DNA of 64,000 nt from an uncultured Mollicutes bacterium (GTDB lineage Bacteria > Bacillota_I > Bacilli_A > RF39 > UBA660): positions 19,886 through 83,885 of the forward strand of contig URRF01000001.1 in assembly GCA_900550145.1 (NCBI GenBank), written 5' to 3'. Position numbers and translations under genes: made by a program. The notes beneath the pieces were generated by a model that saw only the letters and a program-made list of their open reading frames with translations, searched no databases and was not told where the DNA came from. This document shows, piece after piece, positions 1,366 through 42,499 of this stretch (its first letter is position 1; each line of letters begins with the position of its first letter).

Positions 1366-2592
1366 ATGTTACCATTCGATTATAATAAAGGTCTTTATAG
1401 ACGTAATAATTTTGGACAACCTTGTGTATGGTATGCTCGTCCTTTAGATTATAATTCTATTGAAGTTTTTCATGGTATTATAGGTAAAACTATTACTAAA
1501 GATATTATTTATATTAATAGAGAGCCAAGAGAGGAAATTACTTCTCGTATTAATGCTAAACTAAAAGTTGGATATAAAAATCTATGGGATATAAAAGATA
1601 ATGTTCAACTCCCCGTAGAGGGAGAACTATTATCATATCTTGATAAATATCTTCCTTTTAATCGTACTACTGCTGACGGTACTCTTTTGCCTATGCTTGC
1701 TAAAGTTTATGATAATACTAATAATAAACTTTTTAAAAAAGTAAGTAAGTATATTGGACAATATAAAATTAATGGTCTTCGTTGTTTTATTAGTGCTTAT
1801 CGTGATAATAACGATTTATTTGATGGAATAAAACTTAAATTTCAAAGTCGAGAAGGTACTTATTGGAATAGTTTACGTACTCTCGAAGTTTATCTTTTAA
1901 GTATATTTCCTAAGAAACTAATTGACGCTATGATTGAAGAACATTATATTCTTGATGGAGAATTATATCTTCCGGGTCATAGTGTTAATGAAATTAATCA
2001 TTTTGTTAAAGATCCTACTTGTAAAGAAAATAAACTTATTCAATTTTGGTGTTATGATATTGCTATTGATGATGTTGCTCAATATAATAGATTAGATTAT
2101 CTTTATACTATTATTGGAAATTATTATAATATATTTACTTCAAAAGAAGATCATCTTAATAATACAAATAGACTTGTTGTAATTCCTCAATATAATATTT
2201 GTAATGAAAATGTTGCTTATGAACGTAGAAATAGATTTATTGATTTAGGTTTTGAAGGTTTAATTATGCGTAATCCTGAAGCGGAATATCAATATGGTAA
2301 ACGTAATCTTAGTATGATTAAATATAAGAAATCTACTGATGGTAAATTTACTATTATCGATATTTATCCAGAAGGTATTAAACGTAAAGATATTCCTTTA
2401 TTTTTACTTCGTAATGATATAAATAATGAAACTTTTGAAGTTCATCTTGGTGGTTCTTTTAGTTATCAAAAATATGTTTTAGATAATAAAGAATATTTTA
2501 TTGGAAAAGAAATGTTTGTTGAATATGGAGAAAGAAGTGGTGTAAATCAAGTTCCTTTTCATGTTAAGAAAACTTATATTATTGATAAATAA
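1366..2592 (+). CDS. ATP-dependent DNA ligase-like nucleotidyltransferase (408 aa)
   Basis: Ordered covalent-nucleotidyltransferase motifs: motif I-like KINGLR (nt 1765-1782; N replaces the usual D of KxDGxR), motif III-like ILDGELY, motif IV-like EGLIMR, motif V-like MIKYKK. A C-terminal OB-like region follows. Carries one copy of the GC-rich motif (VQLPVEG). Confidence 0.6.
   Translation: MLPFDYNKGLYRRNNFGQPCVWYARPLDYNSIEVFHGIIGKTITKDIIYINREPREEITSRINAKLKVGYKNLWDIKDNVQLPVEGELLSYLDKYLPFNRTTADGTLLPMLAKVYDNTNNKLFKKVSKYIGQYKINGLRCFISAYRDNNDLFDGIKLKFQSREGTYWNSLRTLEVYLLSIFPKKLIDAMIEEHYILDGELYLPGHSVNEINHFVKDPTCKENKLIQFWCYDIAIDDVAQYNRLDYLYTIIGNYYNIFTSKEDHLNNTNRLVVIPQYNICNENVAYERRNRFIDLGFEGLIMRNPEAEYQYGKRNLSMIKYKKSTDGKFTIIDIYPEGIKRKDIPLFLLRNDINNETFEVHLGGSFSYQKYVLDNKEYFIGKEMFVEYGERSGVNQVPFHVKKTYIIDK
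1603..1622 (-). repeat. GC-rich motif copy (GTTCAACTCCCCGTAGAGGG)
   Basis: Exact 10-mer CCCCGTAGAG at 1611-1620, inside the ligase-like gene. Sense reading VQLPVEG. Confidence 0.9.
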
Positions 2593-2995: not shown

Positions 2996-3034
2996 TTATT
3001 ATAGCTTACTTTCTCGTATAAAATGCCAATAAAT

Positions 3035-3048
3035 AGCTGTTTTTAGCT
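3035..3048. promoter_or_regulatory. AGCT-N6-AGCT intergenic mini-palindrome, copy M1 (AGCTGTTTTTAGCT, followed by CTATATTGAATT)
   Basis: One of nine copies, all intergenic. M1 and M6 are near-identical over about 21 nt. Located in the 243-nt gap upstream of the 3193 operon. Confidence 0.45.
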
Positions 3049-3112
3049 CTATATTGAATTATGTTATACTAAGTGATAAATAGTTCAATGTAATATCTAA
3101 ATAGCTAAAAAT

Positions 3113-3126
3113 AGCTTTATATCGAG
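3113..3126. promoter_or_regulatory. AGCT-N6-AGCT mini-palindrome, copy M2 (AGCTAAAAATAGCT, followed by TTATATCG)
   Basis: 5-bp arms AGCTA/TAGCT around AAAA. Lies 78 nt from M1 in opposite core polarity and about 65 nt upstream of the ATG at 3193. Confidence 0.45.
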
Positions 3127-3454: not shown

Positions 3455-4207
3455 ATGAAAGAATGTATTATTGGTATAGCAGGTTGTAAAAATTCTGGTA
3501 AAGATACTGTTGCAAGTATGATTAACTATATATTTGCAACAGGTATTACTCGTTCTAATTATGCGGATTATGTTATAAGGAGAAAAAGTATAAATATTTC
3601 TCATAAAGATAGAATTGTTCATTTTGCTGATAACATGAAAGATGTTATGAGTATTATTTTTAGTATTCCTCGTTTTGCTTTTGACAATAGAGTAAAAAAA
3701 GATAGCGAATATTGGGATTATTTTAATAATAAATTTGTTACTTTTGGAGAAGTATTAAGAGATAAAAATTATATTATATTTGATAATGTTATTGATAAAA
3801 ATTTAAATGATTTAATACAACATTGTTCTGCTAAAAAACAAAGTCTTTATATTAAACTTAGAGCACTTATGCAATATTTTGGTACTGATATTTGTCGTAA
3901 TCATATAGATAATAATATTTGGATAAATTCTACAATGTCTAAAGCTATAAATATTGCTATAAATAGAACATTATGTATTATACCAGATGTTAGATTTTCT
4001 AATGAAGCTAATGCTATTCGTAATAATAGTAAACTCTTCTACGGGGGATTGATTAAAATCAATCGTGATAATATTGATAAAGATGATCATAGTAGCGAAG
4101 ATATTTATTTTAATGCTGATTTTGAAATAGATAATAATGGAAATTTAATGCAATTATTTTATAAAGTTTTACATATATGTCAGAAAATAAAAGAGGTATT
4201 GCTTTAG
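3455..4207 (+). CDS. P-loop kinase, deoxynucleoside-monophosphate-kinase-like (250 aa)
   Basis: N-terminal Walker A IGIAGCKNSGKDTVA closely resembles the GxxxSGKDT N-terminus of phage dNMP kinases (T4 gp1 type). Sits in a nucleotide-metabolism neighbourhood (ThyX-like, dUTPase). Carries one GC-rich motif copy (LFYGG). Confidence 0.5.
   Translation: MKECIIGIAGCKNSGKDTVASMINYIFATGITRSNYADYVIRRKSINISHKDRIVHFADNMKDVMSIIFSIPRFAFDNRVKKDSEYWDYFNNKFVTFGEVLRDKNYIIFDNVIDKNLNDLIQHCSAKKQSLYIKLRALMQYFGTDICRNHIDNNIWINSTMSKAINIAINRTLCIIPDVRFSNEANAIRNNSKLFYGGLIKINRDNIDKDDHSSEDIYFNADFEIDNNGNLMQLFYKVLHICQKIKEVLL
4037..4051 (+). repeat. GC-rich motif copy, one mismatch (TTCTACGGGGGATTG)
   Basis: Inside the dNMP-kinase-like gene. 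Sense reading FYGGL. Confidence 0.8.
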
Positions 4208-5457: not shown

Positions 5458-5781
5458 ATGGAATATAAAAATATTATTAATATTAAAATAAAAGATTTTC
5501 AATTAACTGAAAATAATACTTATAAATGTCTTAATAAACAATTTGTAGATACTGAACATTTATATGTTTTTGATTATAATAGAGGAAAAATATTTCATAT
5601 AGATGTTCCTATAAATACTCAAAATGAAGATATTCCTAATATTTTAGAAGAATATGGTCTTAAAGAATCTGAATGTAATTATATGATTACTGAATATCCT
5701 TGTAAAATAATAAATTTAACTTATGAAGATAAAATTGTTAGTAAAGAAAATAAAACACAAGATAATAAAGTTTCTATATAA
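5458..5781 (+). CDS. hypothetical protein (107 aa)
   Basis: ORF starting 4 nt after the ThyX-like stop. No recognisable motif. Confidence 0.5.
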   Translation: MEYKNIINIKIKDFQLTENNTYKCLNKQFVDTEHLYVFDYNRGKIFHIDVPINTQNEDIPNILEEYGLKESECNYMITEYPCKIINLTYEDKIVSKENKTQDNKVSI

Positions 5782-6511
5782 TTATTTTAAAAAGATTTAT
5801 ATTAGAAATATAAATATTGCTGATAATGAAATTCTTCAATATGCTCATAATGAACTTACTATTGCTGGACATAATAAAAATTCTAAATATTATAATGATA
5901 TAATAGAGGTTATTATTGATATAAATAAAAATAATAATATTAATTCATCTATTAAACATAATATTTCTATTATTAATAAATTATGCGATAAAGTTCCAAT
6001 TACTCCTTTAACTTTAAATGAAGATGAATTTGAACAAAGTATTGTTTCTAAAATACTATATATAAATAAAAGATATAATAAAATTTATAAATATCTTAAT
6101 AAAATGTGTTTTACTAATGCTTATTCTATATCTCCACAATATATTTTATCTACTAAAACAAAAAAACTTTTTCCTTTTAGTACAGATTTATCTTGGAAAA
6201 GTGATGTATTTGAAACTAAACAAGGAATTTTAACTGGTAGATATTTTAATACTTGTTACATAAAAGAATGTCAAATTAAATCTGGTTATTATATCCCTTT
6301 TAATACTATTAAATTAAAAGGTGTTAAAGTTGAAATCAAAGAGTTTATATATATAATGGCTATAGATTGTGAAAATGACGATTTAATTAGACTTTCTAAT
6401 TTATATGATATTGATTGGAAAAATTGTTTTTGTATGAAAGATATTCGTCTTGAAGATGTTACTCCTGAACTTGAAAAAAGAGCTTTTGAAGAAATTGAAA
6501 ATAATAAATAA
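5723..6511 (+). CDS. hypothetical protein, paralog A of the 7287-8015 product (262 aa)
   Basis: Shares collinear blocks with the 242-aa ORF: ITPLTLNEDEF vs LSPLTLKDDEF, and ILTGRYFNTCYIKE vs VVTGEYISTCEIRE. Overlaps the previous ORF by 59 nt. Confidence 0.55.
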   Translation: MKIKLLVKKIKHKIIKFLYNYFKKIYIRNINIADNEILQYAHNELTIAGHNKNSKYYNDIIEVIIDINKNNNINSSIKHNISIINKLCDKVPITPLTLNEDEFEQSIVSKILYINKRYNKIYKYLNKMCFTNAYSISPQYILSTKTKKLFPFSTDLSWKSDVFETKQGILTGRYFNTCYIKECQIKSGYYIPFNTIKLKGVKVEIKEFIYIMAIDCENDDLIRLSNLYDIDWKNCFCMKDIRLEDVTPELEKRAFEEIENNK

Positions 6512-7286: not shown

Positions 7287-8015
7287 ATGTTGGGAGAATT
7301 ATATAAAATTAATAATAATGAAACTGGTTTTTCTTATGTGCTTAAACGAGAAGCTAATATAATATTAAATAAAATAGATAAAAATAATCCTACTTTTCAT
7401 TATCGAAAAGAATATTTTGATAATATTCTTAATATTTGTAAAGCCATAGATGAAATAAAACCAGAATCTGATGATGAAATAAAAGATATAATGGATACTA
7501 TTAATAAACTTTATACTACTGGTTTATTATCTCCTTTAACTTTAAAAGATGATGAATTTGCAACAGCAAGTAATTCTAATTATAAAAATAATATTCGTTA
7601 TCCTTTTATTTTAAAGAGTGTTGGCGATGGTAAAATAATAAATAATAACGCATATAAAGCTAAAATTTATAATATATATAGTCATGATATTATGGCTAAA
7701 GTATTTGAAAATGAACCAGATATTTGTTATAATCCTACTATTTTTATTAACAAAGGTGGAGTTGTTACAGGAGAATATATTTCTACATGTGAAATACGAG
7801 AAGATGTTGTAAATAAACATAATTATACTATTCAAAGCATTATTAATATTCCTTGTTCTCTTATTTTAGATAACGGTGATAGAATTATTACTGTTGACCA
7901 TCGTGAACCTAAACTTAAAGTTTTAAAAGATTTTTATGAAGTTTATTTTAAGTTTGATAAAAGTATTCATGATAGAAAATATGATATTCGTAAATATGCA
8001 AAAATGTTAGCGTAA
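7287..8015 (+). CDS. hypothetical protein, paralog B of the 5723-6511 product (242 aa)
   Basis: See paralog A. Tightly packed: starts 2 nt after the previous stop, and its last base is also the first base of the next gene's ATG. Confidence 0.55.
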   Translation: MLGELYKINNNETGFSYVLKREANIILNKIDKNNPTFHYRKEYFDNILNICKAIDEIKPESDDEIKDIMDTINKLYTTGLLSPLTLKDDEFATASNSNYKNNIRYPFILKSVGDGKIINNNAYKAKIYNIYSHDIMAKVFENEPDICYNPTIFINKGGVVTGEYISTCEIREDVVNKHNYTIQSIINIPCSLILDNGDRIITVDHREPKLKVLKDFYEVYFKFDKSIHDRKYDIRKYAKMLA

Positions 8016-9633: not shown

Positions 9634-9939
9634 ATGATTGCATTTGATATTTTTTATTGTGCTATAATACTATCTGTAATAGCTATTATAATATATCTTT
9701 ATATTAAACTTAAACAGCCCATTATTAATCTTATTAATACTATTAAATCTGTTTATGAACTTCTTGGTAAATTTGGTTTTATTAAACAAGATTTAGATAA
9801 TACAATTAAACAAATAAATGCTGCTCGTAGAGATATTGCTTCTATTAAAAGTAGAGTTAATGAAATTAATGACGCTGTTATTGTAAATAAAATTAATAAT
9901 AAGCAAAATGTTGCTAAAACTAAGAATAATAAACAATAA
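9634..9939 (+). CDS. small membrane-anchored coiled-coil protein (101 aa)
   Basis: N-terminal TM helix (FYCAIILSVIAIIIYLYI) followed by a heptad-like helical region. Same architecture as the 10131-10598 product. Confidence 0.5.
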   Translation: MIAFDIFYCAIILSVIAIIIYLYIKLKQPIINLINTIKSVYELLGKFGFIKQDLDNTIKQINAARRDIASIKSRVNEINDAVIVNKINNKQNVAKTKNNKQ

Positions 9940-9973
9940 TAAACAAATAATAAGCTATAAATGGTGATGATTT

Positions 9974-10095
9974 CTCTACGGGGGATTCCACGAAGCGTAG
10001 CGGAGTGGGTATTGCTTATAAAAATCAAATTGCTAATTTTGTATATTTTGATGTTGATGCTCGTCGCTTTGCTCCTCGCGATTCCCCGTAGAGGA
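9974..10095. repeat. 122-bp intergenic inverted-repeat element whose termini are the GC-rich motif (possible ncRNA or DNA cruciform)
   Basis: CTCTACGGGGGATT (9974-9987) pairs with GATTCCCCGTAGAG (10080-10093) for about 14 bp including G-T pairs. An inner 7-bp pairing joins CGAAGCG (9991-9997) to CGCTTTG (10054-10060). The centre is AT-rich. The arms are much more GC-rich than the rest of the genome. Confidence 0.6.
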
Positions 10096-10130
10096 GTTGT
10101 AACCAATCATAGCTATTAATCCGATTAATT

Positions 10131-10598
10131 ATGAATGTATTTTTGATTATATCGATTTCAACAATATTAGTTATATTAATATTGTTACTTAGATACTTGA
10201 TAGTATCTATTGAAGATCTTAAAGCTCAAATTGTTGCTTATAAAGAGCAAATTATTAAAGGTCAAGGTTATACTGATGATTTATTAAATGATATTTCTAA
10301 AGATGTTGAATATATTCGTACTAATGTAAATCATAAAGATATGTATAATACTTGTATTGAACTTATTAGAACTACACATAATACGTTACTTGATTATATA
10401 AATAAAGCTGGTAGACTTGGTGAAAGTACAACAAATCGTCTTATAAATATTACTAATGAAATTGGATTTACTCGTGGAGATATTAATAATATAAACGATA
10501 AAATTACAGGTATTGCTCTTATGGTTAATCGTATTGATGACAATACTACACCTAAAACGAAAATTAAAGCTAAAAATAGCTTTAAGAAATCAGAGTAA
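10131..10598 (+). CDS. membrane-anchored coiled-coil protein (155 aa)
   Basis: N-terminal TM helix (FLIISISTILVILILLL) plus a helical ectodomain. Last gene of the + block. Confidence 0.5.
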   Translation: MNVFLIISISTILVILILLLRYLIVSIEDLKAQIVAYKEQIIKGQGYTDDLLNDISKDVEYIRTNVNHKDMYNTCIELIRTTHNTLLDYINKAGRLGESTTNRLINITNEIGFTRGDINNINDKITGIALMVNRIDDNTTPKTKIKAKNSFKKSE

Positions 10599-10677: not shown

Positions 10678-10718
10678 AAGCCCGTAGCAGACATTAGTTT
10701 GTTACGGGCTTATTTTTT
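10678..10718. terminator. bidirectional intrinsic terminator at the convergence of the + and - blocks
   Basis: Stem AAGCCCGTA (10678-10686) / TACGGGCTT (10703-10711) extends inward with G-T pairs to about 14 bp. A T6 run follows on the + strand and TTTCTAT on the - strand. Confidence 0.7.
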
Positions 10719-10736: not shown

Positions 10737-11336
10737 TTAACGTTCAATAATAACTCTACCTTTAGAATCAAGTTTACAACCATTAGGAAATTTAAGTTCA
10801 TAAAGAGTTACAAATTCATCATAATTTCCTCTAAAAATAAAGTTATGATTAACAACATATATGGACTTTTTAGTTGTGGCAGCAAGAAGAGCAAGATTAT
10901 CATCTGCACAAGGGTGAGGTACAGCTGGACGAAGTAAAGCATTAAGTGCTTCATAAAATCTTTGTCTATGACAACCAGCCCAAGCTACAAATTCTTTTTC
11001 TGGTATTTCAACAAAATTACCATATAATTGAATATGCTTAAGTATATATCCTATAATCAAACCAGCGTATGAAGATTTATTTAGCCAATAAGGAAACATA
11101 TCTCCAATAGATTGCATACATACACAATAATTACCAAGTTTAACTTGTTTAGAAACAGAAATAAATTCTTTAGGAACAGATTCTTCTTTTAAAGATACAG
11201 TAATATGTCTATCGACATATTCAGGATCAATAGTAAATGGAGTAGCAATAATATTTTTTACTTTATTAGTACTTTTATCTGCAATAATTTCTTTAACTTT
11301 TTTATTAGCTTTAGTTTCAAAACTGAATTGAGGCAT
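10737..11336 (-). CDS. hypothetical protein, possible winged-helix DNA-binding protein (199 aa)
   Basis: Last gene of the minus block and visibly GC-richer than its neighbours. The segment EFVAWAGCHRQRFYEALNALLRP resembles a wHTH recognition region. Weak call. Confidence 0.4.
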   Translation of the reverse strand: MPQFSFETKANKKVKEIIADKSTNKVKNIIATPFTIDPEYVDRHITVSLKEESVPKEFISVSKQVKLGNYCVCMQSIGDMFPYWLNKSSYAGLIIGYILKHIQLYGNFVEIPEKEFVAWAGCHRQRFYEALNALLRPAVPHPCADDNLALLAATTKKSIYVVNHNFIFRGNYDEFVTLYELKFPNGCKLDSKGRVIIER

Positions 11337-11609: not shown

Positions 11610-14600
11610 TTAATCAGGATTAATTTGGTCAGCAATATATTTACTAATTTTCATATTTAATGCTTTCTCATTAATTCTATAATAACTATTATTTTTAGTC
11701 ATATTATTAAGTCTTTCAATAACTCTATAAAGAGGAATATTACGTTTAACAAGAACATCTATTTTATTTCTTCCTTTATAAATACCAGTACTATAAACAG
11801 GATCAAAATCTTCATCAAATAACCAACGAGCAGTATAATCCATAATCTTAATTAAATCACTTGGGCCATTATATGCAGCAATAGGACTCGACCAAAGAGT
11901 TTTACCTTCTGAATAAAGTCCCCACGGAGTGTACATTTGAGATTCAGAAAGAAGTCTATCTGCAAGATATAATCCTGTAGCAACAACATTACTTTCTTTT
12001 TCATCATCGTCATCTGTCATAGCATATATAGTAACTCCTAATAATAAAGCACTAAGAATACCATATAAATCACCAAGACAACGTTTAACAGCATTACGCT
12101 CCCACGGAGACATTAAGTTCCAATTAGTTTTAATATTGGTTATAGTATTTATTACAGCTTTAAAAGTATTTTGAACAGAAGCAACAGCTATACCAACATA
12201 TCCATCTCCTTGTTTTTTAGCGTCGCTAACAACATTTCTAAATTCTTTACTAAGAAAATCAACAAAAGCAACATAAGAACCTACTTCTATAGTATTAGTT
12301 TGCTCATTATAATATCCACGACGACGAAAACGTTTCATAACACCGGGATATAAATGTTTATGATATTGCATAACTAAACTACCCCACCAAGTAAATTCAA
12401 TAAGAGCAGCACCAAGTTTATCATAAACACCATGAATTTTCTTATTAAGATTAACAGTTTTATTTTTTATATCATTAATCATATCTGGAGTAATTTCTGC
12501 TCCAGCTTTTGGAACAATTTCTCCATTCTTTAATTCAAGTAGATCAATAATAGCAGGTTTAGTTTTCCATTCTTCTTTAGCTTTTTTAATAGCTTGATTT
12601 TTAGCATGAATATATTCTTGAATTATTTCTTTACTCGCATGTGCTCTAAGGAAATCTTCTATAATATTATGTTTAAAAGTATCATATTTAAATTGTTCAG
12701 TTTTATCTTGTTTAATAATACGTTTAAATTCTTTTAGTTCTTCAAGTAAATCTTTATCTTTAGAAATAATAGAAACCATAGTATCATATTCTAACTTCCA
12801 AATATATTCAGAAAAACTTCCACAACGTTTAACACCGTCTACATCATCAAATATTTTATTAGATTTAAGAACAGCAAATAAAACAGTGTTTTGCATAAAA
12901 TGTTCACCACCAGATTGTAAACTATACATTAAATTACGCATTCTACGAGCATATTCTCCAGCGGTTTCTCCACGAACTCTTTCTGTCATTGCGTCAAAAT
13001 CAACAACTTTAAAATATTTAGTTAATGCGACAGCAAAGTTATCACTTTTATCTTTATACATATCACCAATCATTCGTAAAGAATTATTCATATACATTCC
13101 TATAGCTTCTCTAATATCATTTTTACTAAGATTATCTCCAGCAAATGCTTCACCCATGATATTTGCAAAACCAGTACCAATATTAGATATACCTCCAGTC
13201 ACATTAAAAATCATATATTTAGCAGAAGTAATATTACGAGCTAAATCTGCATATTTATTTAATTTAGACTTTTCTTTAAATTGTTCAAAAATAAGACGAC
13301 GAGTAAAACCATAAACTTGTTTTAAAGTATTATCTTGACTAATTGTATGATAATTATCTTGAATATCAACACTTGTTCTTTTATTAATAACAGGTCTACC
13401 AGTAAATTTACTAATTTTGACAGCTTCAGTATTTTTTAAATCTTCTTGAAGTAAGTATAACCAATTTTTAGCTTTATTACGAGCATTTATAACAACTTGA
13501 TTAGAAATAGCTTCTGCAAATACACTACGATAATCTTTATCAAATAGTTGTTTATCTATTTCAAGATTATGCTTTTTAATTTCTTCATTTTTCTTTTTAG
13601 TATCTTGAAGATATTTACGATAATTTTCGTCTTTTTCTCCAATTCCTTTAGGACGAATTTCTTCTAATTCTTGATAACCTTTACCTTTTAGAAGTTTAAG
13701 CATATCATTTTCAACTTCATAATCATTAGCATAATCAACTTTAGCATTCCATCTATCTTCACTATCGTTTCTAAACTCTAAACCAGTAACTCCTAATAAT
13801 TGATTAACAACCCATTTTGTATCAGTAACAACTTTACGTCTACGAGGAATATAACCTTGTTCAACAAATGTATTATGTTTATTATGTTCAGCAAAAAAAT
13901 CCATAGTTTCTTGAAGTAAACTTTGCATTTCTTTTTCTTTAGGACTTAAAGTAACATAATTATTATAATGTCCATTATCTCTATTATAGTTATTACTATA
14001 TTTTTTATATTTTTTATTTACATATTCATCTTTAACTTGTTTTTCAGCATTTTCATTAGTAGGAACATAACTATAAGTACCTTTAAGAGAACCCTCTGGA
14101 TTAACTTTCATTTCAGTCCAAACACGAAGTGGTTCAAATTTATGTTTATATGGATTATAAACATGATTAACATCAAACCATTCTTTAAAATCACCATTAT
14201 TGCTTGCTTCATTCATAGCAGCATAATAGTATTCATTAGGAATAAAATCAACATTATTTTCTATAAGCTCTCTTGCAGCAGTTTTCTTTTTATTAATATA
14301 TTTATCATTTTTTGGTTCTATATATCCATAAATGTCATTATTAGGAGTATAATTACCGTTATCATCTAATATAATTTCTCCACTATTATCTAATTGACAG
14401 AAAATATTAATAAAAGTATCAAAATCTTTAGTACCTTTTAAATTACTTAAAGCCCAACTAAGTTCTGTATTAAAAGCAGTATTATTAGTTTTAAATTCAA
14501 CTTCTTGTTTAAATTTTTGACGAATCTCTTTTGGTTTACGTTTACCTTTAATATTTCGTAAAGCATTATATAAATTAGCAAGTTCTTCTCTTTCTTCTTC

Positions 14601-17600
14601 AGTAAGTTTAGTAAATATATCTTTAGCGTGAATACGTCCATCTCCACCAAATTCAACAGCTGTAATAGTTTTTCCTAATAATTCATTAATTCTACCTATA
14701 ATTTTAATTCTTCGAGGATTAACTTCTTTTTCATTTTCACTTGGATCACGAAGCATTCGATAAAAACTATCGTCAAATATAGGAAGATTATTAGGAATAT
14801 CTTTTATTAATATAGCTTCTCCAGCGTTACTATCATAACTAAAATCATATTTATGTTTAGTAAGTACTTTTATAGTAGCAATATCTTTATCGCTTAATTT
14901 TCGAGCATCGATATTACCAAATTCATCATAAGCATTAGCATCATCTATTATTTTCTTAATTTTAGCACTATTTAAATTATCTTCATCTTTAAGTATAGAA
15001 AATGCTTCATTAATTTTATCTTTAGCTTCTTTATTAATAACATAATAACTATTATTTTTAATCCATTCATAAGCACTTCTATATTCAATATTTTCTAATC
15101 GTTTATCTAAAGTTTGAGTAGGATTATTTTTCTCATAATGTTTAATAATAGCTAAATTCTTTTCAAGATTTTCTTTAAATTCATCAGTATCATTATAATC
15201 AAAATATTCTTTATCAAGAGCAGATTTAGCTTTAATAAAATTTTTTAATTTAATAGCACGTTCTCTTTCTTCAGGAGATTTAAGAGTTTCAGTATCTTTA
15301 TATTCAGAAGTAAGTTGATTAATTTTCTTATCGATTTCTCTTCTTCTATTACGCTCTTGAGTTGTTAAAGCACTATTTGGTTGATCATCAATAAATTTTT
15401 CATGAATATATTCCATATATTGACGATATTCTTCAGGAGCAGTTTCAAATATCTCTCTAATTAAAGCGTTCTTTTTAATATAATATTCTCGAACAACATG
15501 TTGTTCAACATTATCAGCATACCATTCATCACGCTTAAGTTTAGCAGCAATATATTCTTTACTATCTATACCATATCTATCAAGAGCATCTTTAACAGCG
15601 TCAACTAATTTATCTCTATCAGTAAGAAATTTAGCAGTATAAGGTCTAATAAGTTGTCCATTTGAATTAATAATATTTTCCCATCTAAAACTACCACTTT
15701 TATCTAATATATTATCAAATCTTTTAAGAAACTCATTTTTCTTACGAGGAGCATCTTGCATTGCAGCTTGATTCATAATCCTATTAACAATCTTAACAAT
15801 AACTTGTACTTGTTTATTGCTTAACATTGCAATATCTCCAATATTAGTTTCCCACCAACCAGAATCGCCAAAAGTATCTTTAAGATTAACAACGTTCATT
15901 CGTATATTAGGATTATTAGCAAATTCATTAGCAATATATTTATTAAACATATTATCAAATCCTTGTTTAATAATTGAAGAATTACGAATTTTATTTATAG
16001 AATCACGAATTTTTTGAATATATCTTTTAGTATCTTCGTCCATACCGTCAATAGGAAGACTCATAATATTTCCAAAAGTATCGCCAAATGTAATAGCTTC
16101 AAGTAATAATTTAACTATATTAGAAACTTCATCTGGATTACTTCTTAAAACTTCATATAAATCAGATTCTCCGATATTATATTCTTTATCGCCTATAACA
16201 TAATATTTCATTTGTTTATCGATCATATCAGCATAACTACTAATATAATCGCTAAGAATATGATATATATTTCTTCTATTATCTTTAATATCTTTAGAAC
16301 GATAAGAATTTATACCTTTTATATCTAATTTACGAAGTGCTTTAGCAGCAATATCATCACCTCGTTTTTCAGCTCTTCTAAGAGCAGCAATCATGGCAAC
16401 AGATGTTTCATCTACTTCAGTTATTCTATTAGCATTATCTATATAATCATCAGTTATATCAGTAGTAATAGCATATGCTTCATCATTAAAATTATCTCTA
16501 TTTTCTTGTTGTTGTTTTTCAAATTCTTCTCTAACACTTTCTTCAGTAATATGTTCAATTTTATAATATTTATGGGATTCAGTTTTAGAAGCTAATGCAC
16601 TTCTATAAGCATCACGTTCTTCAATTCTAACTTTTTGAACATTTTCTGTATTATTAGAAGAAACATTATTAATTAAATCTTTATGTAAATTAGATTTAAA
16701 AGCAGGAGACGGAGAATATCTTCTAATAGTAACAAGAATATTACCATTTTCAGTAGGAATATTTTGTGTAATAATATCAGTTTTTCCTACTTGTTCACTA
16801 ATATAAAAAGAATTAGAACGTACAACTCCATAATCACCTTTCTCCTCTACGGGGGATTGAATATAAGTCTCTACATCTTTAAATAGTTTATTAAGTTCAG
16901 CTTTTTGTATTTCAGTGCCGTTAACAGAAACATTCTGAAATTCATTAACATTATCAATAGCATTATTTTCCAAATTAAACTTATAACGAGGAATAATATG
17001 TTCTTTATATTTATCTTTTAATTTTACTTTATTATCCTTATCAATAAAATATTCTTTAGCTCCAATACTTTCAGCTTCAGCAATAACAGTGTTATAAAAA
17101 CTAATATCTCCATATTTGTTATTATTTGGATTAACGCTATAATCACCTGTTTCATTAGGCTCAAGTAAATTCATAGGAATAAGATAAACTCCGCTTTCAT
17201 GTTTGTCTATTTTATATAATGTACTAATTTTATTATCACCAGTACTTCTATTAACAACAATATAATCTTGAGGAGATTTAGTATTTTCAACATTAATTTC
17301 ATTAAGTAAAGTTTTAAATCTACCGTCAAAAGGAATAAATATTAGTCCATTACCTTTATTACAAATATTAAATTGAAAAGCAGTATTACTTATACCTTTA
17401 TTATTTTCAGGTTTACCGAGTTTAATAGATTTACAATATTCTTTATGACTGCGAATAAATTTATCAATAAATTCATTTGTAACTGCACTTGCAGGATTAG
17501 TATAATATCCAAATATTTCTCTAATAGCGGGAACAATACCTGTACCCATATCTTCTATATTTTTATATAAAGAATTATTAGTAATAATTTTATCAACAGC

Positions 17601-20600
17601 ACCTCTTTTAAATTTAAATCCGTCAACAACAAAAGCATATTTAATTAAATCAGCAATAGCAAGTCTAAATATAGGGGATTTATTAAAGAAACTTGTACCA
17701 AATTCAATATAAATATCGTCTATATTTTCAGCAGAATCTGTAAATTTAATGCTTTGATGAGTAAAACCTTTACGTTTAAGTTCAAATTGATTATTAAGAT
17801 TTACATTAAGATAATTAAAAATACCTAAATCTCCATCAATATGCGTTTGAATCCAAGATATTTTTTGAGCAGGAGTAAGAGTATTAAATTTACTAAGTTC
17901 TTCTTCAGTAGGATTAAATATATCTTTAATATCAAAATTAATTTTTTGAGTAGTTTCAAAACCAAATATACGAGAAATTTCAGCATTCCAATAATTAGTA
18001 TCGTTTTCAGTAGATTTAACAATAGCTTCATTATTATCATTTAACCAACCTTCTTTAGTAACAGTTAAAGGAGTATTAAGCATAGGAACTTGAGAATATA
18101 TCATATTCATCATATATTGTTTATATTCTCTATATTGTTTAGGAGTAAATACAACACCTAATTTAACTTGAACAGCATTAAGTACAGCATTATAAACATC
18201 ATTTTCAGTTGGGAACAATTGTTTATTAACGTCAACACTTGTTAATGTAGCATATTTAAAAAATGCAGCTAAAAATGGATAAACACTATTTTCAATATCA
18301 ATATCTCCTCTAACTAATTCATCTAAATCACTAACTTCATTTTTTTCAATTTTAATAAATTCCGGATAAAGTTTTTCGATAAGACGTTTACCTCCGCACA
18401 TTACAGTATTACCAACTTCATTATCAGTAAATCCATAAGCAATAACGTTATCTACAATAGTACGAGTTTCTCTAATAGTTTGTTTTGCACCAAAATTATC
18501 AGGATTACAACAACGAAGAACTTTTTCAAGATTTTTAGTAGTTTTATTAATCTTATCAAAAGCTAAACAAATAGCAATATCAAAAACAGCATTTTTAATA
18601 TCATTATCTTTTTGTGATAATTCAGAAATATTAGTTATTTTGGACGATTCTAAGCGTGATTTTAGCACTTTTGCATTTAACGTGAATTGTTGTTCCTGTA
18701 TAGGCTTTTGCGTTGAAATTTCAGCCCCAAATAGCTCTTTATACGCATTTCTAAATTGTTCGTTGGAGTTCAACGCTAACAATACCGATTCATAGTTAGA
18801 ATAGTCAGTAATATCAGTAGCACCAAGTTTAAAACCAGCTTTAGCAGCTATTCTCTTAACAGCTTTCTGAACAGTATTACCACCTCCTGTAAGATATAAA
18901 CTATTACTTTCATTATTAACTTCGTTAATAGTAGTAATAGCAGGTTGCATTAAAAACGCAATAGCAGTTCTATAATCCATACCTGTATCTATAAGAGTTT
19001 TAAATGTTCCAAAAGTAAATTCATTTTCATTAAAAATAGAACCTTCTTTAATAGCATCAAGAATATGTGCAGTAGTTTGAGAACTATAAACAGTAATTAA
19101 TTCTCCAACAACATTACGATTATTATAACTATTAGCTAATCTATAATGTTTAACTCTTGCAGTAGCAGCTTTATCGATTTCATTAGTTTTCTTACCATCT
19201 TTATCTAATAATATAACATCTCCTTTTTTAGTAGTCTCATTATATAACCCATATGCTTTAACTATCATTTCTGCGTCATAAATAAATTTACCATTAGCAT
19301 CTTTTTCAGTTAAATCATATTCAGCAATAATTTCATGACCTTTTCCTAAATATCCTTTAGCATAATTATTAACACTATTGAAAGTATCTCGTGTAACAGA
19401 AAACGCTTTAAGAGAAGCTCCACCCATAGCATTTTCCATAAAATCCATTTGGTCAAAAGGATTATAAACGCTACGACTAACAGAATCGGCTCCACGAGCT
19501 TTATCCATTTCTTTCATAGCAGATGAAAGTCTATCAAAATTACTTCGAGAATAATTCTCTTCCCTACTATTACTATCAGCCATAATAGCGATCATAGCAT
19601 CAAGAATATTATTGTTTCTAACAACACGAGGTAATTTATCAACTTCATCTAATTTAGAAAACTCATTAAAAGTCAATAGTCCAGCTTCTTTACCAATATT
19701 AGTGAGTTCTTTATAAAGACTATCTCTATTATCTTTTTCTGTACGAAGTTTTTTAACAACATCACGAAGACGTTTTTGAAGTACTTTATATTTATCTTCA
19801 TGAAAATCATCTTCAATATCAGAAGAAATTTTATTATTAATATTATCTTCTATATAATATTTATATTTAGCATAATCAGTTTTAAAATCATCAGCAGAAT
19901 ATTTCTTAATTCTTTTAATATTACCATTTTTATCTTTTACTACTTTAAGAGAATGACAAACGCCATAAACAGAGTCAACGTCAAAGTCAGAACCTGTTTG
20001 AGCAACCCATTCATCAGGTAACATAATAGTACTACCATAAACATCATCAAGAAAACCTACTACTTTAACGATACTAACAGATTGTTTACCTTCAGTAGGA
20101 ATACGATAAGCAAGTTGAATATCAAGACCTTCTTTTTGTATCATTTCAAGAGCTTCTGGAGTATTAGGAATAAGATTGCTCCAACGAGGAATCATAACTT
20201 CAGCATATGCTTCTTGTTTAACTTCATATTTATTTTTATCTTCATCAGATAATTTGTCATACTCGGTTTCTTCTATTTTAACTCCAGTTTCTTTATTAAC
20301 AATAACTTTTGGGTGATATTTAAGTTCTCTAAGTTTACCATTATTGTCTAAAACTTTCATTCCATGACCAACTTGGGTAACCTGTGCAGCATGCCAACCA
20401 GGAAATTTTTGTCTCGTAATACTACTATTAAATATAGCTTGTGCTATACTTTCAAGTTTACTACTAACGTTATTCATATAATTAGGCATAGCTGGATTAC
20501 CAAATTCATCAGGAGTTAAATATTCTATAAAATTAGAATCCATACCAAGACGCTGAGCTTCAATACGAGCTTTCTTATAAAAATCAGTAAAATCTAATGT

Positions 20601-23600
20601 TTGTTTATCACCATTAATATTAACTAATTTACCATTTTTATCTTCTTTCCAGCCCATATTAAAAAGAAGTTTTTTAAAATCTTCTTTAATATTAGCGCAA
20701 TAATTTTTAAAGAAAGTATCAATATAAGGTTTAACAGATTCATTAGCATTATCACAAATCTTTTTAGTAATTTGCACACCGGCTTTATTTTGAGCATCTT
20801 TCATGTGCTCTGGAACATCTTGTTGTTTATAAAGAAAACGATAATAATAATCTTCTATAGCATTTTCATTATTAGAAATAAGATCTTGTTCAAAATTAGG
20901 ATTAATATTTCCATCATTATCCCAAAATGTTAAAACGTTCTTTTTAGCAGCTTTACTTGTTTCATTAGTATTAACTTGCCCAATATCATATTTGTGCATG
21001 AAATTATAAAGCTCTTTAAGTTGAGTTCCTTCAAGAAGTTCAGGAATAAGAACAAATTCAGCATTTTTAATTTGACGAGGATAATGTACTCCAGTATAAC
21101 TATCATATTTATGGTCATAATAAAAATTCTTCTGTACTTGAATACGAGAATTAATTTTACTAATATCTATATCTTCAATTCTACGTTGACCACTTCTAAG
21201 TTCATAAAGTTGTTGAAATATATCTTCATATTCTTTAAAAGTGCCATCAGCATAACGTCTACGCATAAATTCTTCAATAGTAATAAAAGACTGTGCGTCA
21301 TTAGTTTTACTTGCTTCTCTATATCCATTAGCAATTTCAGCAGCTTTTTTAGTAGCAGCAACTTCACCAAGTTCATCTTTAAGATAATTAAATAATTCTT
21401 GTTGAATATTATTAGCTTGTTTACTTGGTCTTACAGTATTATTAATAGTAACAGCTCTAAAACCATTACGAGCATATTTTCCAGCAGAATGAATTATTGC
21501 ATAACCCTCTACGGGGGAATAAGCATTAGCGTATTTATCTATTGTAGTATTGCCAAATTTAATTTCTTGTTTAGAACCATTATATCCAATAGTTTCTTTA
21601 ATTTTAGCACTAAGAGTATCATTAATATCAAATCCAGCATAGGCTGTTCCACCAGCTTGTACTTCTTTAGCACGTTTAAGAAAATCTTTAGCGTCTTTAT
21701 AAAATTTAACATCACCTTCAAGAAAATCATCTAATTGCATATAAGCATTAGCAGCATTAAGAGCAAAATCAACTAAATCTTCATTACTTTTTTGTAGTTC
21801 TTGAAGAATATTTTGATATTGTTTACCATGAGCTACAATCTCTTTATTAAAAGATTTAATCCATTGTTCAACAATATTATCTATAATACTTTTTACTTCT
21901 TGAGTTTCATTAAAAACAATTTTACCATTTTCAATTCTAATAAGAGGACTATTAACATTTAAAGTAGCAGTATTTCCTTTAACTTGAATAAGTCCTCCGG
22001 CTTCGCCTACGGACGTTCCCCCGTAGAGAAGTAATGCACGTTCAAGCTCTTCACCTGCTTTATAATCCTCTGTATTAAATAGTTTTTGAAAGCTAAAGAA
22101 ATTTCCACTTAGTTTACCAGCTTTAGGGTTAAGTTTAGTCTTTTCTTTATCAAGCCATTTACCTTCAACAAGAATACATTCTCTACCTTTATCGTCATAA
22201 GTAGTTTTATTAAAATGTACTCTTTCAATTAATCCATTAGTGTCTTTACGAAGAACCCAATTACCTTTACTATCATTATCAAATAAATAAGTTAATTGAT
22301 TAATAAACATATTAAGTTCTCCTAAAACATTTTGTCTAAATCCAGCAAATATAGGAGTAGCTCGATTAATACGAACATCTATAGAACCATTTTCAATACC
22401 TTCTTGTTTAATAATATCTGCTATATCGGCATAAAAATCATCACTAAGTTTATTATCGTTAACTGAAGAAATACCCTCTATTTCTATATTATATAAAATA
22501 TTATTTATTTCACCTTCAATTTTATCTCCTTTAATCCAAACAATATCGGGACTATCTTTAGTTTTATAAATTATAGGAATAGAAATAGTACCATCTTCAT
22601 TTTCAATATAATAATATTTATTAAAATTAAGAGTAGATAATTCTCCTTTAATAGCATAATAAATATCTTTAGCAGACCAAATATTATTTTTATTAGTAGC
22701 AGCTTTATCTTTAACTTCTAAATATTTATCATAATTTTCATCTGTATTTTCTAAAGTATAATTATCTATTTCATTACGTCTTTTATTAGCGTATTTAGCG
22801 ATATCTGTAGCTAAAGCTGTAATTGTATTTTTAGCATCAAGTTTAGGTGCTTGGATAATAAAATTTTTAGGAGCGTCAGAAGGAGTACGGAAAAAATATC
22901 CAGCTTGAGAAGCATTTAAACTTGCTTTAGAAGCACCAATATTTTGTCCAGCAATAATAGGATTAAAGTAAGCAATCATAGAAGTAGCAAAATAATCTCC
23001 TTTGGACATTTTAGCATATAAAGCCGCTTTATCACTTTGCATATCTTTAATACCATTAAATAAACTTATTTGAATAAGTTTTTGAGCATTAGGATTAATA
23101 GAGACATTATCTCTATCATCTCTCATAAATAATCCTTCTTGAATATATTTACCATTAGCTCCTTTAATTCCCCAAAAGAAACTATTATATTTATATTGTT
23201 CTCCTTTATTAATTTCTTCTAATAGATTTCTTAGACCAGCTTGAGCATCTTTTTTATTAGCATAATTAATTTGTTTGAGAAGATTAGTAATATAACTATT
23301 ATTAATTACATCAGAAGATAAATTACCTTCAGCGTTAACACTATTTAATTCATTACGAACAGCAGAATAGTTAACAAGTTTTTGACATATATTAACTATT
23401 GGTTCATTAAGTCTATCGTAATTAATATTAGAAGAATCAAATAAAGGAACATCTTTAGTATATTTTTGACCAATTTCTTCAGAATATCTTACAGCTTCAT
23501 TATAAGCTTTTCTTTCATTATTATATTTATTATATGATTCATTATATTCTATAACAGTAGTTTCAACTTTTTGTAAAAGATCTGCTATATTATTTAATAG

Positions 23601-42393: not shown

Positions 42394-42407
42394 AGCTATT
42401 TTTAGCT
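42394..42407. promoter_or_regulatory. AGCT-N6-AGCT mini-palindrome, copy M6 (AGCTATTTTTAGCT, followed by CTATATTTAATC)
   Basis: Ends 42 nt upstream of the ATG at 42352 when read on the minus strand. Near-identical to M1 over about 21 nt. Confidence 0.45.
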
Positions 42408-42470
42408 CTATATTTAATCTTGATTTAATCTAATATAATTAATCACTTACTAACATAAAATTCAATATAA

Positions 42471-42484
42471 AGCTAATTTTAGCT
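42471..42484. promoter_or_regulatory. AGCT-N6-AGCT mini-palindrome, copy M7 (AGCTAATTTTAGCT)
   Basis: Lies 77 nt from M6. Read on the minus strand it is AGCTAAAATTAGCTTTATATTGAATTTT, and its 3-prime flank matches the M1 flank CTATATTGAATT. Confidence 0.4.
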
Positions 42485-42499
42485 ATTCTCGTTTATTTA

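Follow-up and report, generated by a model that had tools for sequence, protein, structure and literature searches.

The window (the whole stretch of DNA analysed here, 64,000 nt) carries at 9974-10093 an imperfect palindrome of 120 nt that begins 35 nt past the stop codon of one gene and ends 37 nt ahead of the start of the next, co-oriented gene (10131-10598), with no terminator between the two. Its ends read CTCTACGGGG and CCCCGTAGAG, and two GC-rich arms (55-60% GC) flank a spacer of 20% GC within DNA of 15-25% GC, which bears out the preliminary description of arms that stand out from their surroundings. Further along, the terminator scan calls a real bidirectional intrinsic terminator at a convergent junction (10678-10711), and a RepL-like gene on the minus strand (10737-11336) lies 640 nt from the element; its product is 27% identical (E = 9e-19) to a p-crAssphage RepL-family protein (PF05732, 31.8 bits). 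Cumulative GC skew peaks near the element, at 10948, as at a terminus-like junction, while in p-crAssphage ZA and cr110_1 the minima fall at the other junction.

Structure of the element

The arm sequences quoted in the preliminary description occur at the coordinates given there, and the palindrome is genuine and structured. Its termini (9974-9983, CTCTACGGGG, and 10084-10093, CCCCGTAGAG, the latter being CTCTACGGGG on the minus strand) form a perfect 10-bp inverted repeat. The terminal stem of about 14 bp proposed earlier exists on the plus strand, where G.U pairs (GAUU/GAUU) extend these 10 bp to 14, and the proposed 7-bp inner stem, CGAAGCG/CGCTTTG, is present in the minimum-free-energy fold. 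Folded as plus-strand RNA, 9965-10105 gives a single long stem-loop of -52.3 kcal/mol (z = -5.2; none of 200 shuffles was as good), which spans 9967-10100, while the minus strand reaches -37.0 kcal/mol (z = -3.7).

Each arm is made of two boxes. In the left arm, box 1 (9974-9983, plus strand; lineage form CTCTACGGGGGATT at 9974-9987) is followed by a box 2 of the form CCAC-GAAGCGTAGCGGA-GTGG (9988-10008, plus strand), and in the right arm a box 2 reading GCGAGGAGCAAAGCGACGAGC on the minus strand (10059-10079; CGAGGAGCGAAGCGACGAGC in relatives) precedes the inverted box 1. Either arm can form a 4-bp stem with a 13-nt loop of its own. The AT-rich spacer between them (10009-10058) is unique sequence that differs between element families, and indeed the entire interior is unique within the window, in which recurrence is limited to the terminal 10-14 nt. 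No target-site duplication is present in the flanks (…GATTT | GAGTT…), and a single-copy element of this kind is not a multi-copy MITE of the Correia or ERIC type.

The earlier suggestion of a structured RNA, cruciform or origin-like site may still hold, but not in the form of a known RNA: the whole window has no Rfam match at gathering score (the best permissive hit, to U4, has 14 bits and E = 0.47), and ARAGORN calls no tRNA or tmRNA at the element. It is not an intrinsic terminator either, as the scan does not call it, no T-run follows 10100 and the true terminator lies 580 nt downstream.

A two-part signal dispersed through the window

The ends of the element are copies of a dispersed motif, as had been noticed. 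With up to 3 mismatches allowed, a 16-mer search of the window returns 10 matches where 0.04 are expected, and exact copies of CTACGGGG number 13, of which the two in the element are the only non-coding ones; the other 11 lie in long ORFs. Some intragenic copies do share extra sequence with the arms, and this proves to be a definable second box and not the loose similarity first described. The signal thus has two parts: box 1, CTCTACGGGG with lineage-specific flanks, and box 2, a purine-rich segment of the GAGCG(A/T)AGCG type that starts 4-8 nt after box 1 and can form GCGNAGC-type mini-hairpins. Most copies are the box 1 tag alone, without a palindrome, while in extended units the tag (complement CCCCGTAGAG) stands 4-8 nt from a small hairpin.

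Box 1 is mostly intragenic, on either strand, and is read in three frame and orientation combinations. It runs antisense in a ligase ORF (1611-1620, minus strand; QLPVEG) and sense, as TTCTACGGGG, in a dNMP kinase ORF (4037-4046, plus strand; FYGG). Antisense copies on the plus strand follow in the 4539-aa virion RNA polymerase ORF (16845-16854; QSPVEE), in the giant ORF (21507-21516; YSPVEG), both at positions kept in the family B phage L008, and in a 2178-aa ORF (26519-26528; QSPVEE). Another antisense copy (35391-35400, plus strand) forms an inverted pair with a sense copy 144 nt away (35535-35544, minus strand; PSTGK), and the portal ORF holds a sense copy (61971-61980, minus strand; VSTGD). 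Degenerate copies reading CTTTACGGGG lie on the plus strand at 37898-37907 and at 43172-43181, the latter as inverted partner of the copy at 43049, 123 nt apart, and a weak candidate with one mismatch, CTCTACGTGG, lies at 56959-56968 on the same strand.

Three extended units sit on the minus strand, sense to their genes. The one in the giant ORF (21992-22028) joins box 1 to the mini-hairpin GGCGAAGCC, encodes LLYGGTSVGEAGG and has its LYGG site kept in p-crAssphage. A second (28965-29000), with an ACTCCAC-GAA-GTGGAGT hairpin, lies in a linker of the 2178-aa RNAP-associated protein whose orthologous linker has a unit in cr110_1, p-crAssphage and crAss002. The third, box 1 with GCGAGTGAAACGAGC, falls in a tail-tubular-protein ORF (43026-43058; SSTGEPASETSS), and its sense copy is kept in cr110_1 and p-crAssphage. 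All intragenic extended units are sense-oriented.

The preliminary description saw in the element a candidate master copy or template for the intragenic copies, and this idea has to be given up. The interior is found nowhere else in the window, and the intragenic copies occupy orthologous positions in other genera. cr3_1 and crAss002 carry about 27-29 motif copies, and cr3_1 has only a single unit at the equivalent junction, and the two arms are different unit types, each of which occurs singly in other genomes. Self-comparison of the window gives no long repeat pair of the reverse transcriptase type (repeats of about 100 nt that differ at adenines), which speaks equally against a DGR.

Distribution across crAss-like phages

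Both boxes are dispersed in Intestiviridae crAss-like phages, namely the window, cr3_1, cr110_1, p-crAssphage and crAss002, and each lineage has its own consensus for the box 1 flanks. Counting both strands, there are 28 copies in cr110_1, 29 in cr3_1, about 27 in crAss002, and 17 plus 13 variant copies in p-crAssphage ZA. Roughly 85% of copies lie inside protein-coding genes (about two thirds in cr110_1). The first 50 kb of crAss001, scanned for TACGGGG, contain no motif copies; crAss001 has an over-represented word of its own, TCCAGAAG.

Elements with identical termini and differing interiors fall into 8 clusters from viral and gut metagenome contigs, and where the surroundings were examined, the element is mostly found where the replication module ends, beside the giant RNAP gene. 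In p-crAssphage, large palindromes of the same build (-96.6 and -76 kcal/mol) stand at each of the junctions between its two gene blocks, and both RepL paralogues have such a palindrome within 160-420 nt. In cr110_1 a hairpin and the RepL-like gene are about 700 nt apart, and the hairpin of this phage at the equivalent site folds better on the antisense strand. In cr3_1, extended units directly follow stop codons, one of them with a T-run. Several intergenic units, all sense-oriented, precede gene starts by 25-130 nt. The box 2 of the left arm is the unit type found at 5965 in p-crAssphage ZA (CCACGGAGCGTAGCGTAGTGG), and that of the right arm recurs nearly unchanged inside a gene at 47845 in crAss002 (CGAGGAGCGAAGCGACGAGG); both places are non-orthologous to the element, and near-identical box 2 segments of 19-21 nt recur at non-orthologous positions of different subfamilies.

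A covariance model built from families A and B recovered only elements with the same termini and no new homologues, and a dUTPase protein query for distant syntenic loci returned only near-identical contigs. The earlier proposal to look for the arms in host genomes led to no host source: the scan, which covered only the paired pattern, found it only by chance in GC-rich taxa and on one Rikenellaceae MAG contig, and in no Bacteroides, so a host-derived or CRISPR-related repeat is rejected. We found no prior description of the dispersed signal in the full-text literature, within a coverage that was not exhaustive, and it seems to have gone undescribed until now.

Selection, spacing and covariation

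What selection maintains in the box 1 copies is the nucleotide sequence itself. Their codons are the rarest ones (CCC makes up 4.4% of Pro codons, GGG 2.8% of Gly, CTC 1.3% of Leu and TAC 3.9% of Tyr), and at orthologous sites both the copies and these codons are kept across genera whose capsids are only about 70% identical. In one alignment position the motif reads SPVED in cr110_1 and TPRGG in p-crAssphage, and copies are gained and lost without indels, as in PVED versus DEVD or FLRGV versus FLNGE. Rare codons together with the lack of indels imply that the nucleotides are the object of selection.

The copies are also evenly spaced. With the motif defined by a regular expression in four complete genomes, choices on which the result depends, the coefficient of variation (CV) of locus spacing is 0.42-0.52 against 0.81 simulated (P = 0.0002, 0.0006 and 0.005), and per strand it is 0.35-0.65 against 0.9 (P <= 0.013 in 7 of 8 tests), with one copy per strand roughly every 6-7 kb. 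Orientation switches between neighbouring copies in 73 of 102 cases (P = 8e-6); inverted partners lie within 250 nt of 40-50% of the copies, and direct partners of none. Even spacing and alternation might in part be a by-product, for example if a phage that has a RecT system is selected to avoid direct repeats close together. The inverted pairs are not recoding or intragenic invertons, as inversion in silico gives stop codons in 6 of the 7 intragenic pairs. Automatic assignment of local gene orientation around pairs proved unreliable near the convergent junction.

Conservation and covariation in relatives had been named as checks on the palindrome, and the element is indeed conserved, with compensatory and wobble-compatible changes. 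Over 37 consensus pairs in families A and B, 97% of cells are paired and 8 pairs have changed on both sides, against 4.1 +/- 1.3 in shuffled and 0-3 in slid controls, in a comparison that rests essentially on these two lineages. CGAAGCG/CGCTTTG, for instance, becomes CGGAGCG/CGCTTCG in relatives, a change compatible with wobble pairing on the plus strand only.

Interpretation

The element consists of two inverted copies of a two-part GC-rich signal, one per strand, and this doublet is BIME-like in that two different unit types pair across a spacer in a hairpin kept by compensatory changes. Our preferred reading, which we hold tentatively and at somewhat less than an even chance, is that the signal is cis-acting and strand-specific at the DNA level and that the doublet places it bidirectionally. 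Because box 1 is conserved equally whether it runs with or against transcription, and is evenly distributed per strand, it is most likely read on DNA, a single strand at a time. A candidate reader would be a phage-lineage-specific factor acting on unwound or single-stranded DNA, whether in replication, in recombination or end-processing, or in the transcription bubble. The doublet would then be a spot at the end of the replication-gene module that presents the signal in both directions simultaneously, and with its easily melted spacer at the centre it could be extruded as a hairpin or cruciform. Mini-hairpins of the d(GCGAAGC) type are unusually stable as DNA.

A more specific proposal, which we consider unlikely as it stands, is that the word serves as a 'self tag' of Intestiviridae, among them the most abundant phage of the human gut: 10-14 GC-rich nucleotides written into genes through rare codons and kept evenly on each strand, which a phage-specific factor would read when the DNA is unwound or single-stranded, as a viral counterpart of uptake and Chi sequences. 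In one concrete version, tag and hairpin would together be an entry or initiation site for a virion RNA polymerase that prefers single-stranded DNA, or for a primase, and the tag would be needed every few kb because the genomes are circularly permuted, so that any part may enter or be processed first.

The most serious competitor to a DNA signal is an RNA stem-loop within the polycistronic message of the middle (replication) genes, acting as an RNase III-type processing site, as a protector of the 3' end of the upstream message or as an attenuator for the gene at 10131-10598. RNase III sites of T7 and REP/BIME elements in E. coli operons act as such intercistronic hairpins, and the position between two co-oriented genes without an intervening terminator suits this role. 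So does the fold: the sense strand gains its advantage (-52.3 versus -37.0 kcal/mol) through 9 G.U pairs and has no A.C mismatch, the changes in relatives are wobble-compatible on that strand alone, and in all 5 independent clusters with unambiguous flanking genes the sense strand folds better, by 2.5-21 kcal/mol. The cr3_1 units placed right after stop codons, one with its T-run, look the same way, while the uniform sense orientation of intragenic extended units would fit an RNA-level role but equally fits coding constraints on a purine-rich insert. However, random 132-nt windows of the genome also favour the sense strand (80% of them, by 4.3 +/- 5.3 kcal/mol), which weakens the asymmetry as proof of an RNA, and the element's advantage of 15 kcal/mol places it no further out than the 3-4% tail of these windows. 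An RNA hairpin could do without invariant boxes of 10-20 nt common to subfamilies, it leaves unexplained the antisense box 1 copies, the even spacing per strand and the palindromes between divergent gene blocks in p-crAssphage and cr110_1, and it sits badly with the cr110_1 hairpin at the equivalent site, which folds better antisense, and with the missing U-tract. We regard this explanation as possible but, on balance, unlikely. That the locus is instead a gene for a small membrane protein is scarcely credible. The minus-strand ORF covering it (9753-10106, 117 aa) had been judged spurious and looks so, but it is not the only one, a 52-aa plus-strand ORF (9961-10119) having been overlooked. The latter has an ATG start, a hydrophobic centre and a core conserved in close relatives; yet 5 of 8 variants have a 1-nt indel that gives it another C-terminus and carries the frame on into the following gene. 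Of 8 substitutions relative to MT835806, read by eye, 6 are non-synonymous; PHROG gives no match, and families B-D have no homologous ORF. The peptide 'LRGI' appears on both strands simply because both contain the motif.

Three further explanations draw on the dispersal of the signal or on its neighbours. The units might be selfish, small mobile or gene-converting repeats like REPs and REPINs, MITEs or mitochondrial GC clusters, in permissive spots, with a doublet that does nothing for the phage. Near-identical box 2 segments at non-orthologous sites, the lineage-specific flank consensus, which suggests concerted evolution, and the use of variable linkers and intergenic gaps all agree with this, and the complement of the motif contains GTAG, which is the tag of one REP superfamily (PMC3733652). 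But selfish insertions would not be expected to be evenly spaced per strand, to be held with their rare codons at orthologous sites across genera or to come and go without indels; the 120-nt element itself is single-copy without a target-site duplication, and a transposase is annotated in none of the 4 complete relatives. We consider this improbable. A RepL-dependent replication origin, in which the AT-rich spacer would unwind and the GC-rich arms would bind the neighbouring initiator, is quite improbable, despite the RepL-like gene 640 nt away, the palindromes near both p-crAssphage paralogues, the hairpin near the cr110_1 gene and a layout that resembles the inverted ssiA/ssiB pair of RSF1010 oriV. 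The element lies near the maximum of cumulative GC skew, not the minimum, some 30 evenly dispersed copies are unlike the iterons of an origin, and tblastn finds no RepL-like gene in cr3_1, crAss002 or the loci of families B, C and D, although motif, palindrome or both are there. The abundance of the motif in such genomes also rules out RepL binding sites as a general explanation. Still more doubtful, and in our view very improbable, is a hairpin promoter for the virion RNA polymerase as in coliphage N4, in which the enzyme would recognise box 1 together with a short hairpin (3-nt purine loop) on DNA that is extruded or single-stranded. The crAss-like enzyme does transcribe single-stranded DNA and its early-promoter motif is not known; according to a review, it drives early and middle (replication) genes (PMC10136315). 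Some units have 7-bp stems with a GAA loop (28991; 44005 in cr3_1), several sense-oriented units lie 25-130 nt upstream of gene starts, and the N4 P2 hairpin GAAGC-GGA-GCTTC shares the 10-mer GAAGCGGAGC with box 2 (PMC13492108). Yet most copies are hairpin-less and fall within late genes, on either strand, the two arms of the doublet would direct transcription at one another, and the T7-like N4 enzyme is unrelated to the two-barrel crAss enzyme, so that the sequence overlap may be chance.

A strand-specific DNA signal would bear on matters that are still open in crAss-like phages, among them replication, the start sites of the virion RNA polymerase and DNA packaging (PMC10136315). Among the phages of the human gut, crAssphage and its relatives dominate, and a conserved word that runs counter to codon preference and is evenly spaced on both strands is a direct handle on one such process. 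The tag imposes the peptides SPVE, LYGG and SSTG on proteins, makes GC-rich islands that could be mistaken for insertions, ncRNAs or recombination scars, and could bias primer and probe design in crAssphage assays of faecal pollution.

Comparison with known systems

The REP/BIME elements of enterobacteria and the REPINs of Pseudomonas are, like the units here, short and GC-rich, with a conserved tag beside a small hairpin in both orientations, and BIMEs likewise invert two different unit types into a larger stem-loop within operons; the GTAG in the complement of box 1 adds to the likeness. A REP/BIME unit is an imperfect palindrome of 20-40 nt with a GTAG or CGTC tag at one end; the extended units here have a tag near a small hairpin, most copies are the tag only, and the core motif is not itself palindromic. 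REP/BIME units are also extragenic, whereas long ORFs contain 11 of the 13 exact copies in the window. Even spacing per strand and conservation at orthologous sites across genera, in a phage genome, further set our signal apart, and an annotation check found no RAYT/Y1 transposase in cr110_1, p-crAssphage ZA, cr3_1 or crAss002. The stoperators of cluster A mycobacteriophages offer a phage parallel, with some 25-35 copies of an asymmetric 13-14-bp site across the genome, also inside genes, but they follow the orientation of transcription and are bound by a known repressor, whereas orientation alternates here.

Single-strand initiation signals (G4-type ssi, ssiA/ssiB of RSF1010 oriV, ssoA of rolling-circle plasmids) share the layout of strand-specific hairpins with a conserved single-stranded flank, and in RSF1010 ssiA and ssiB lie inverted to each other, one on each strand, next to replication genes. 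The likeness is one of layout; the units here are genome-wide and mostly hairpin-less. Box 2 variants contain TAGCGT or TAGCGA, like the CS-6 of ssoA. N4-type promoters have a 5-7-bp stem and a 3-nt loop upstream of early genes and are read by a T7-like virion polymerase. Some units have such hairpins (28991; 44005 in cr3_1), the arms of the element have the 4-bp stem and 13-nt loop described above, and the crAss polymerase belongs to a different family.

Chi sites of RecBCD and AddAB are, like box 1, over-represented, orientation-dependent and strand-specific signals within coding sequence at kb-scale intervals. They have 5-8 conserved bases against at least 10 here, and our motif occurs in both orientations throughout both gene blocks with no replichore skew. 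Unlike Chi, the signal is not host-determined, because it is missing from the first 50 kb of crAss001 and present in about 27 copies in crAss002, two phages with the same host genus (Bacteroides). Box 2 contains AGCGG and GAAGCGG, which serve as Chi in B. subtilis and S. aureus, probably by chance. DNA uptake sequences (USS in Haemophilus, DUS in Neisseria) share with our signal a 9-12-nt core, lineage dialects, equal use of the strands, a mostly intragenic and evenly spaced placement in several frames and inverted pairs that form intergenic stem-loops. They number about 1500-2000 copies, against some 30 per genome here, and since a phage has no competence machinery, the reader of the tag and the process that favours it must differ from those of USS and DUS.

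Results

A 120-nt imperfect palindrome (9974-10093) lies in the 191-nt gap between two small membrane-protein genes (9634-9939 and 10131-10598), its two GC-rich arms (55-60% GC) set around an AT-rich spacer (20%). The preliminary description had reported an inverted-repeat element of 122 bp here, and the sequences that it quoted are present exactly as given. As it proposed, the arm termini, CTCTACGGGG (9974-9983) and CCCCGTAGAG (10084-10093), form an inverted repeat, perfect over 10 bp, and recur as a dispersed motif, which we call box 1: there are 13 exact copies of CTACGGGG in the window, and motif matches number 10 observed versus 0.04 expected. When both strands were folded, the + strand formed a single extended stem-loop at -52.3 kcal/mol (z = -5.2; none of 200 shuffled sequences did as well), and the - strand reached -37.0 kcal/mol; folded as DNA, the + strand gave -18.2 kcal/mol (z = -2.4). 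The arms are two different types of extended unit, that is, box 1 followed by a second segment, box 2. The left-arm box 2 (CCACGAAGCGTAGCGGAGTGG) matches p-crAssphage 5965 and the right-arm box 2 (CGAGGAGCAAAGCGACGAGC) matches crAss002 47845, both in non-orthologous places. The element is thus an inverted doublet of two unit types, as in enterobacterial BIME. Its spacer reads TAATTTTG at 10034-10041, which fits the Bacteroides -7 promoter consensus, TAnnTTTG, and is a candidate promoter, inside the loop, for the gene at 10131-10598.

MT835806, which is 93.6% identical across this region, keeps the element, as do nine IMG/VR contigs and many gut-metagenome contigs, giving 14 distinct variants (the window type is family A below). 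In relatives the inner stem CGAAGCG/CGCTTTG becomes CGGAGCG/CGCTTCG, with pairing preserved via G.U on the + strand. Pattern scans found seven further clusters that share the termini and differ in the interior, of which the three examined first are families B, C and D. Family B (loci L003, L008 and L010) can be aligned over both arms to the type found in the window. The element closes the replication module in families B and C, with the giant RNA polymerase gene adjacent, and is found among small genes in family D (L006). The covariation analysis suggested by the preliminary description, run on the A and B alignment, found 37 consensus pairs with 97.3% of cells paired, and 8 pairs changed on both sides; shuffles gave 4.1 +/- 1.3 such pairs, with none of 500 reaching 8, and slid controls gave 0-3. 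The hairpin is conserved, and covariation supports selection for pairing rather than proving it because the events come from two lineages only. Among Bacteroidales-labelled genomes the paired pattern had a single match, in the Rikenellaceae MAG contig JAWXTL010000069.1 (827-935), whose interior is GC-rich, unlike the phage elements, and whose two strands fold at -52/-53 kcal/mol; it may be a phage contig or a chance match.

The window belongs to a crAss-like phage and is AT-rich (26.6% GC). On the identity of its capsid protein to those of cr3_1 (74%), cr110_1 (72%) and p-crAssphage (70%), it is assigned to Crassvirales, Intestiviridae, Crudevirinae. Replication genes occupy the + strand up to 10598, and transcription and structural genes the - strand from 10737; the cumulative GC-skew maximum adjoins the element. 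The element was rejected as terminator of the + module, the canonical bidirectional terminator being at 10678-10711. Beyond it on the - strand lie a RepL-family homologue (10737-11336; 27% identity, E = 9e-19 to a p-crAssphage RepL-like protein), whose cr110_1 counterpart is annotated 'transcription regulator', and a virion RNA polymerase homologue in a single 4539-aa ORF (11610-25229), which contains three motif copies; its orthologues in cr110_1, p-crAssphage and crAss002 contain 3-5 each. RepL-family paralogues number three in cr110_1 and two in p-crAssphage.

Elsewhere in the window, two paralogous + strand proteins match the Tad3 family of Type I Thoeris inhibitors (PF25185), at 5723-6511 (45.2 bits, above the 27-bit cut-off) and 7287-8015 (23.8 bits, below it), and are possible anti-defence genes within the replication module. 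Three AT-rich intergenic blocks of ~90 nt, 70-74% alike (3029-3117, +; 42394-42487, -; 60490-60579, -), all face the same way relative to the gene that follows (ORF starts at 3455, 42352 and 60388), and may be a common promoter or leader. ARAGORN called a 92-nt tRNA-Asn (GTT) at 46348-46439 (+), inside a - strand gene block and overlapping ORF 46008-46511; its unusual length may reflect an intron or a false call.

Box 1 is a genome-wide signal shared across the family. It takes the form TCCTCTACGGGGGGTC in cr110_1 (Delmidovirus; 28 copies), CTCTACGGGG with a CTCCACGGGG variant in p-crAssphage ZA (Carjivirus; 17 and 13 copies), TTCCTYTACGGGGGARC in cr3_1 (Diorhovirus; 29 copies) and CTTTA[C/T]GGGGGAA in crAss002 (Churivirinae; about 27 copies), its flank consensus differing lineage by lineage. 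A subset of copies has box 2, 4-8 nt downstream, which has either the core GAGCG(A/T)AGCG or a short GC stem capped by a GAA/GAAA loop, and an identical 20-mer, AGCGGAGCGAAGCGGAGCGG, is common to unrelated genes at p-crAssphage 45084 and crAss002 86212. The first 50 kb of crAss001 (Steigviridae; MH675552 1-50000) have 0 copies. This stretch has a strongly over-represented word of its own, TCCAGAAG, often as CTCCAGAAGGAG, with 20 copies on both strands against a roughly estimated 1 expected, and other Crassvirales families may likewise have their own dispersed words.

Selection on box 1 targets nucleotides, not peptides or insertions. The 11 window copies within ORFs encode different peptides by orientation (five antisense, ...QSPVE...; six sense, ...LYGG... 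and ...SSTGE...), and they are built from the rarest codons of the genome (CCC, 4.4% of Pro; GGG, 2.8% of Gly; CTC, 1.3% of Leu; TAC, 3.9% of Tyr; GAG, 7.1% of Glu; TCC, 2.0% of Ser). Orthologue alignments show copies gained or lost with no indel, as in LPVED versus LDEVD and FLRGV versus FLNGE. In the tail-tubular gene a sense copy is retained at one site in all three genera, and at another aligned site the antisense copy reads SPVED in cr110_1 and TPRGG in p-crAssphage; in the giant gene the positions of three copies are unchanged between the window and the family B phage L008. A multi-copy MITE was rejected, since the window has a single 120-nt element, repetition is confined to the terminal 10-14 nt, and there is no target-site duplication; the window also has no retroelement-type long repeat pair.

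In complete genomes, the spacing between motif loci is more regular than chance predicts (CV 0.46, 0.42 and 0.52 versus 0.81 simulated; P = 0.0002, 0.0006 and 0.005), and spacing is also even on each strand (mean 4.7-7.8 kb; CV 0.35-0.65 versus about 0.9; P <= 0.013 in 7 of 8 tests). Orientation alternates: of 102 pairs of adjacent copies, 73 switch (P = 8e-6), an excess that largely persists for pairs separated by over 500 nt. An inverted partner lies within 250 nt of 40-50% of copies, a direct partner of none. Recoding invertons were rejected: in silico inversion of intragenic pairs produced stop codons in 6 of 7. About a third of cr110_1 copies are intergenic, versus ~93% coding in the window genome. 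In p-crAssphage ZA, inverted motif and box 2 units build two very large palindromes of the element's design, 28208-28314 and 96486-96615 (within 28150-28380 and 96430-96680; + strand folds of -96.6 and -76 kcal/mol). There is one near each junction of the two gene blocks, each adjoins a RepL gene, and the second coincides with the cumulative GC-skew minimum. The cr110_1 record opens (1-70) with roughly eight CTTGCTGCT units in tandem. Next to them, at the divergent junction and GC-skew minimum, lies a pair of motif copies in inverted orientation (106/263).

Discussion

The analysis establishes the anatomy of the element and the family to which it belongs, selection at the level of nucleotides, regular spacing with alternating orientation, and conservation of the hairpin. 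Beyond that, we tentatively favour, as somewhat short of probable, a reading in which box 1 is a strand-specific signal on DNA. An Intestiviridae-specific factor would read it on unwound DNA, one strand at a time, and the doublet would display the signal both ways around an easily melted spacer. Equal conservation in both orientations relative to transcription, a separate even series on each strand, and palindromes between divergent gene blocks all point to the DNA level. An intercistronic RNA stem-loop is possible though doubtful. The doublet does lie between co-transcribed genes, and extended intragenic units are all sense in the window, p-crAssphage and crAss002, although coding constraints on the purine-rich segment could also explain that bias. 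For the element, folding is 15 kcal/mol more favourable on the sense than on the antisense strand, and 5 of 5 clusters with clear gene orientation lean the same way; however, this asymmetry is partly composition and suggestive only, because random 132-nt windows favour sense too (by 4.3 +/- 5.3 kcal/mol; 80% of them, with 3.8% at >= 13 kcal/mol). Neither an Rfam family at threshold nor a tRNA or tmRNA was found at the element in the scans of these kinds that the preliminary description had proposed.

A RepL origin is rather improbable: tblastn found no RepL-like gene in cr3_1, crAss002 or the family B, C and D loci, though these carry the motif, so the link to RepL is not general. A hairpin promoter for the virion RNA polymerase, as an enzyme preferring ssDNA, seems quite improbable, and the 10-mer that the N4 P2 hairpin GAAGCGGAGCTTC has in common with box 2 (PMC13492108) is a lead only. 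That the element encodes a small protein is extremely improbable. The preliminary description overlooked a 52-aa + strand frame in naming the 117-aa - strand frame as the sole ORF, and its judgement against coding holds: of 8 close variants, 5 have a 1-nt indel that alters the C-terminal end of the 52-aa frame, substitutions are mostly non-synonymous, the ORFs have no PHROG match, and other element families lack such an ORF. A selfish REP-like repeat is unlikely as well.

We found no published description of the motif in the literature searched, including a 2023 review. Descriptively, its closest matches are bacterial uptake sequences and REP/BIME. Uptake sequences share its even spacing, use of both strands, intragenic copies, inverted pairs and dialects, and REP/BIME share the tag-and-hairpin build of its extended units, though most copies are the tag alone, and its heterologous inverted doublets. 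Membership in either class fails on defining features, since the phage has no competence system, its copies are not extragenic and no RAYT gene is annotated in cr110_1, p-crAssphage ZA, cr3_1 or crAss002. The family that carries this genomic signal is a very prominent one among phages.
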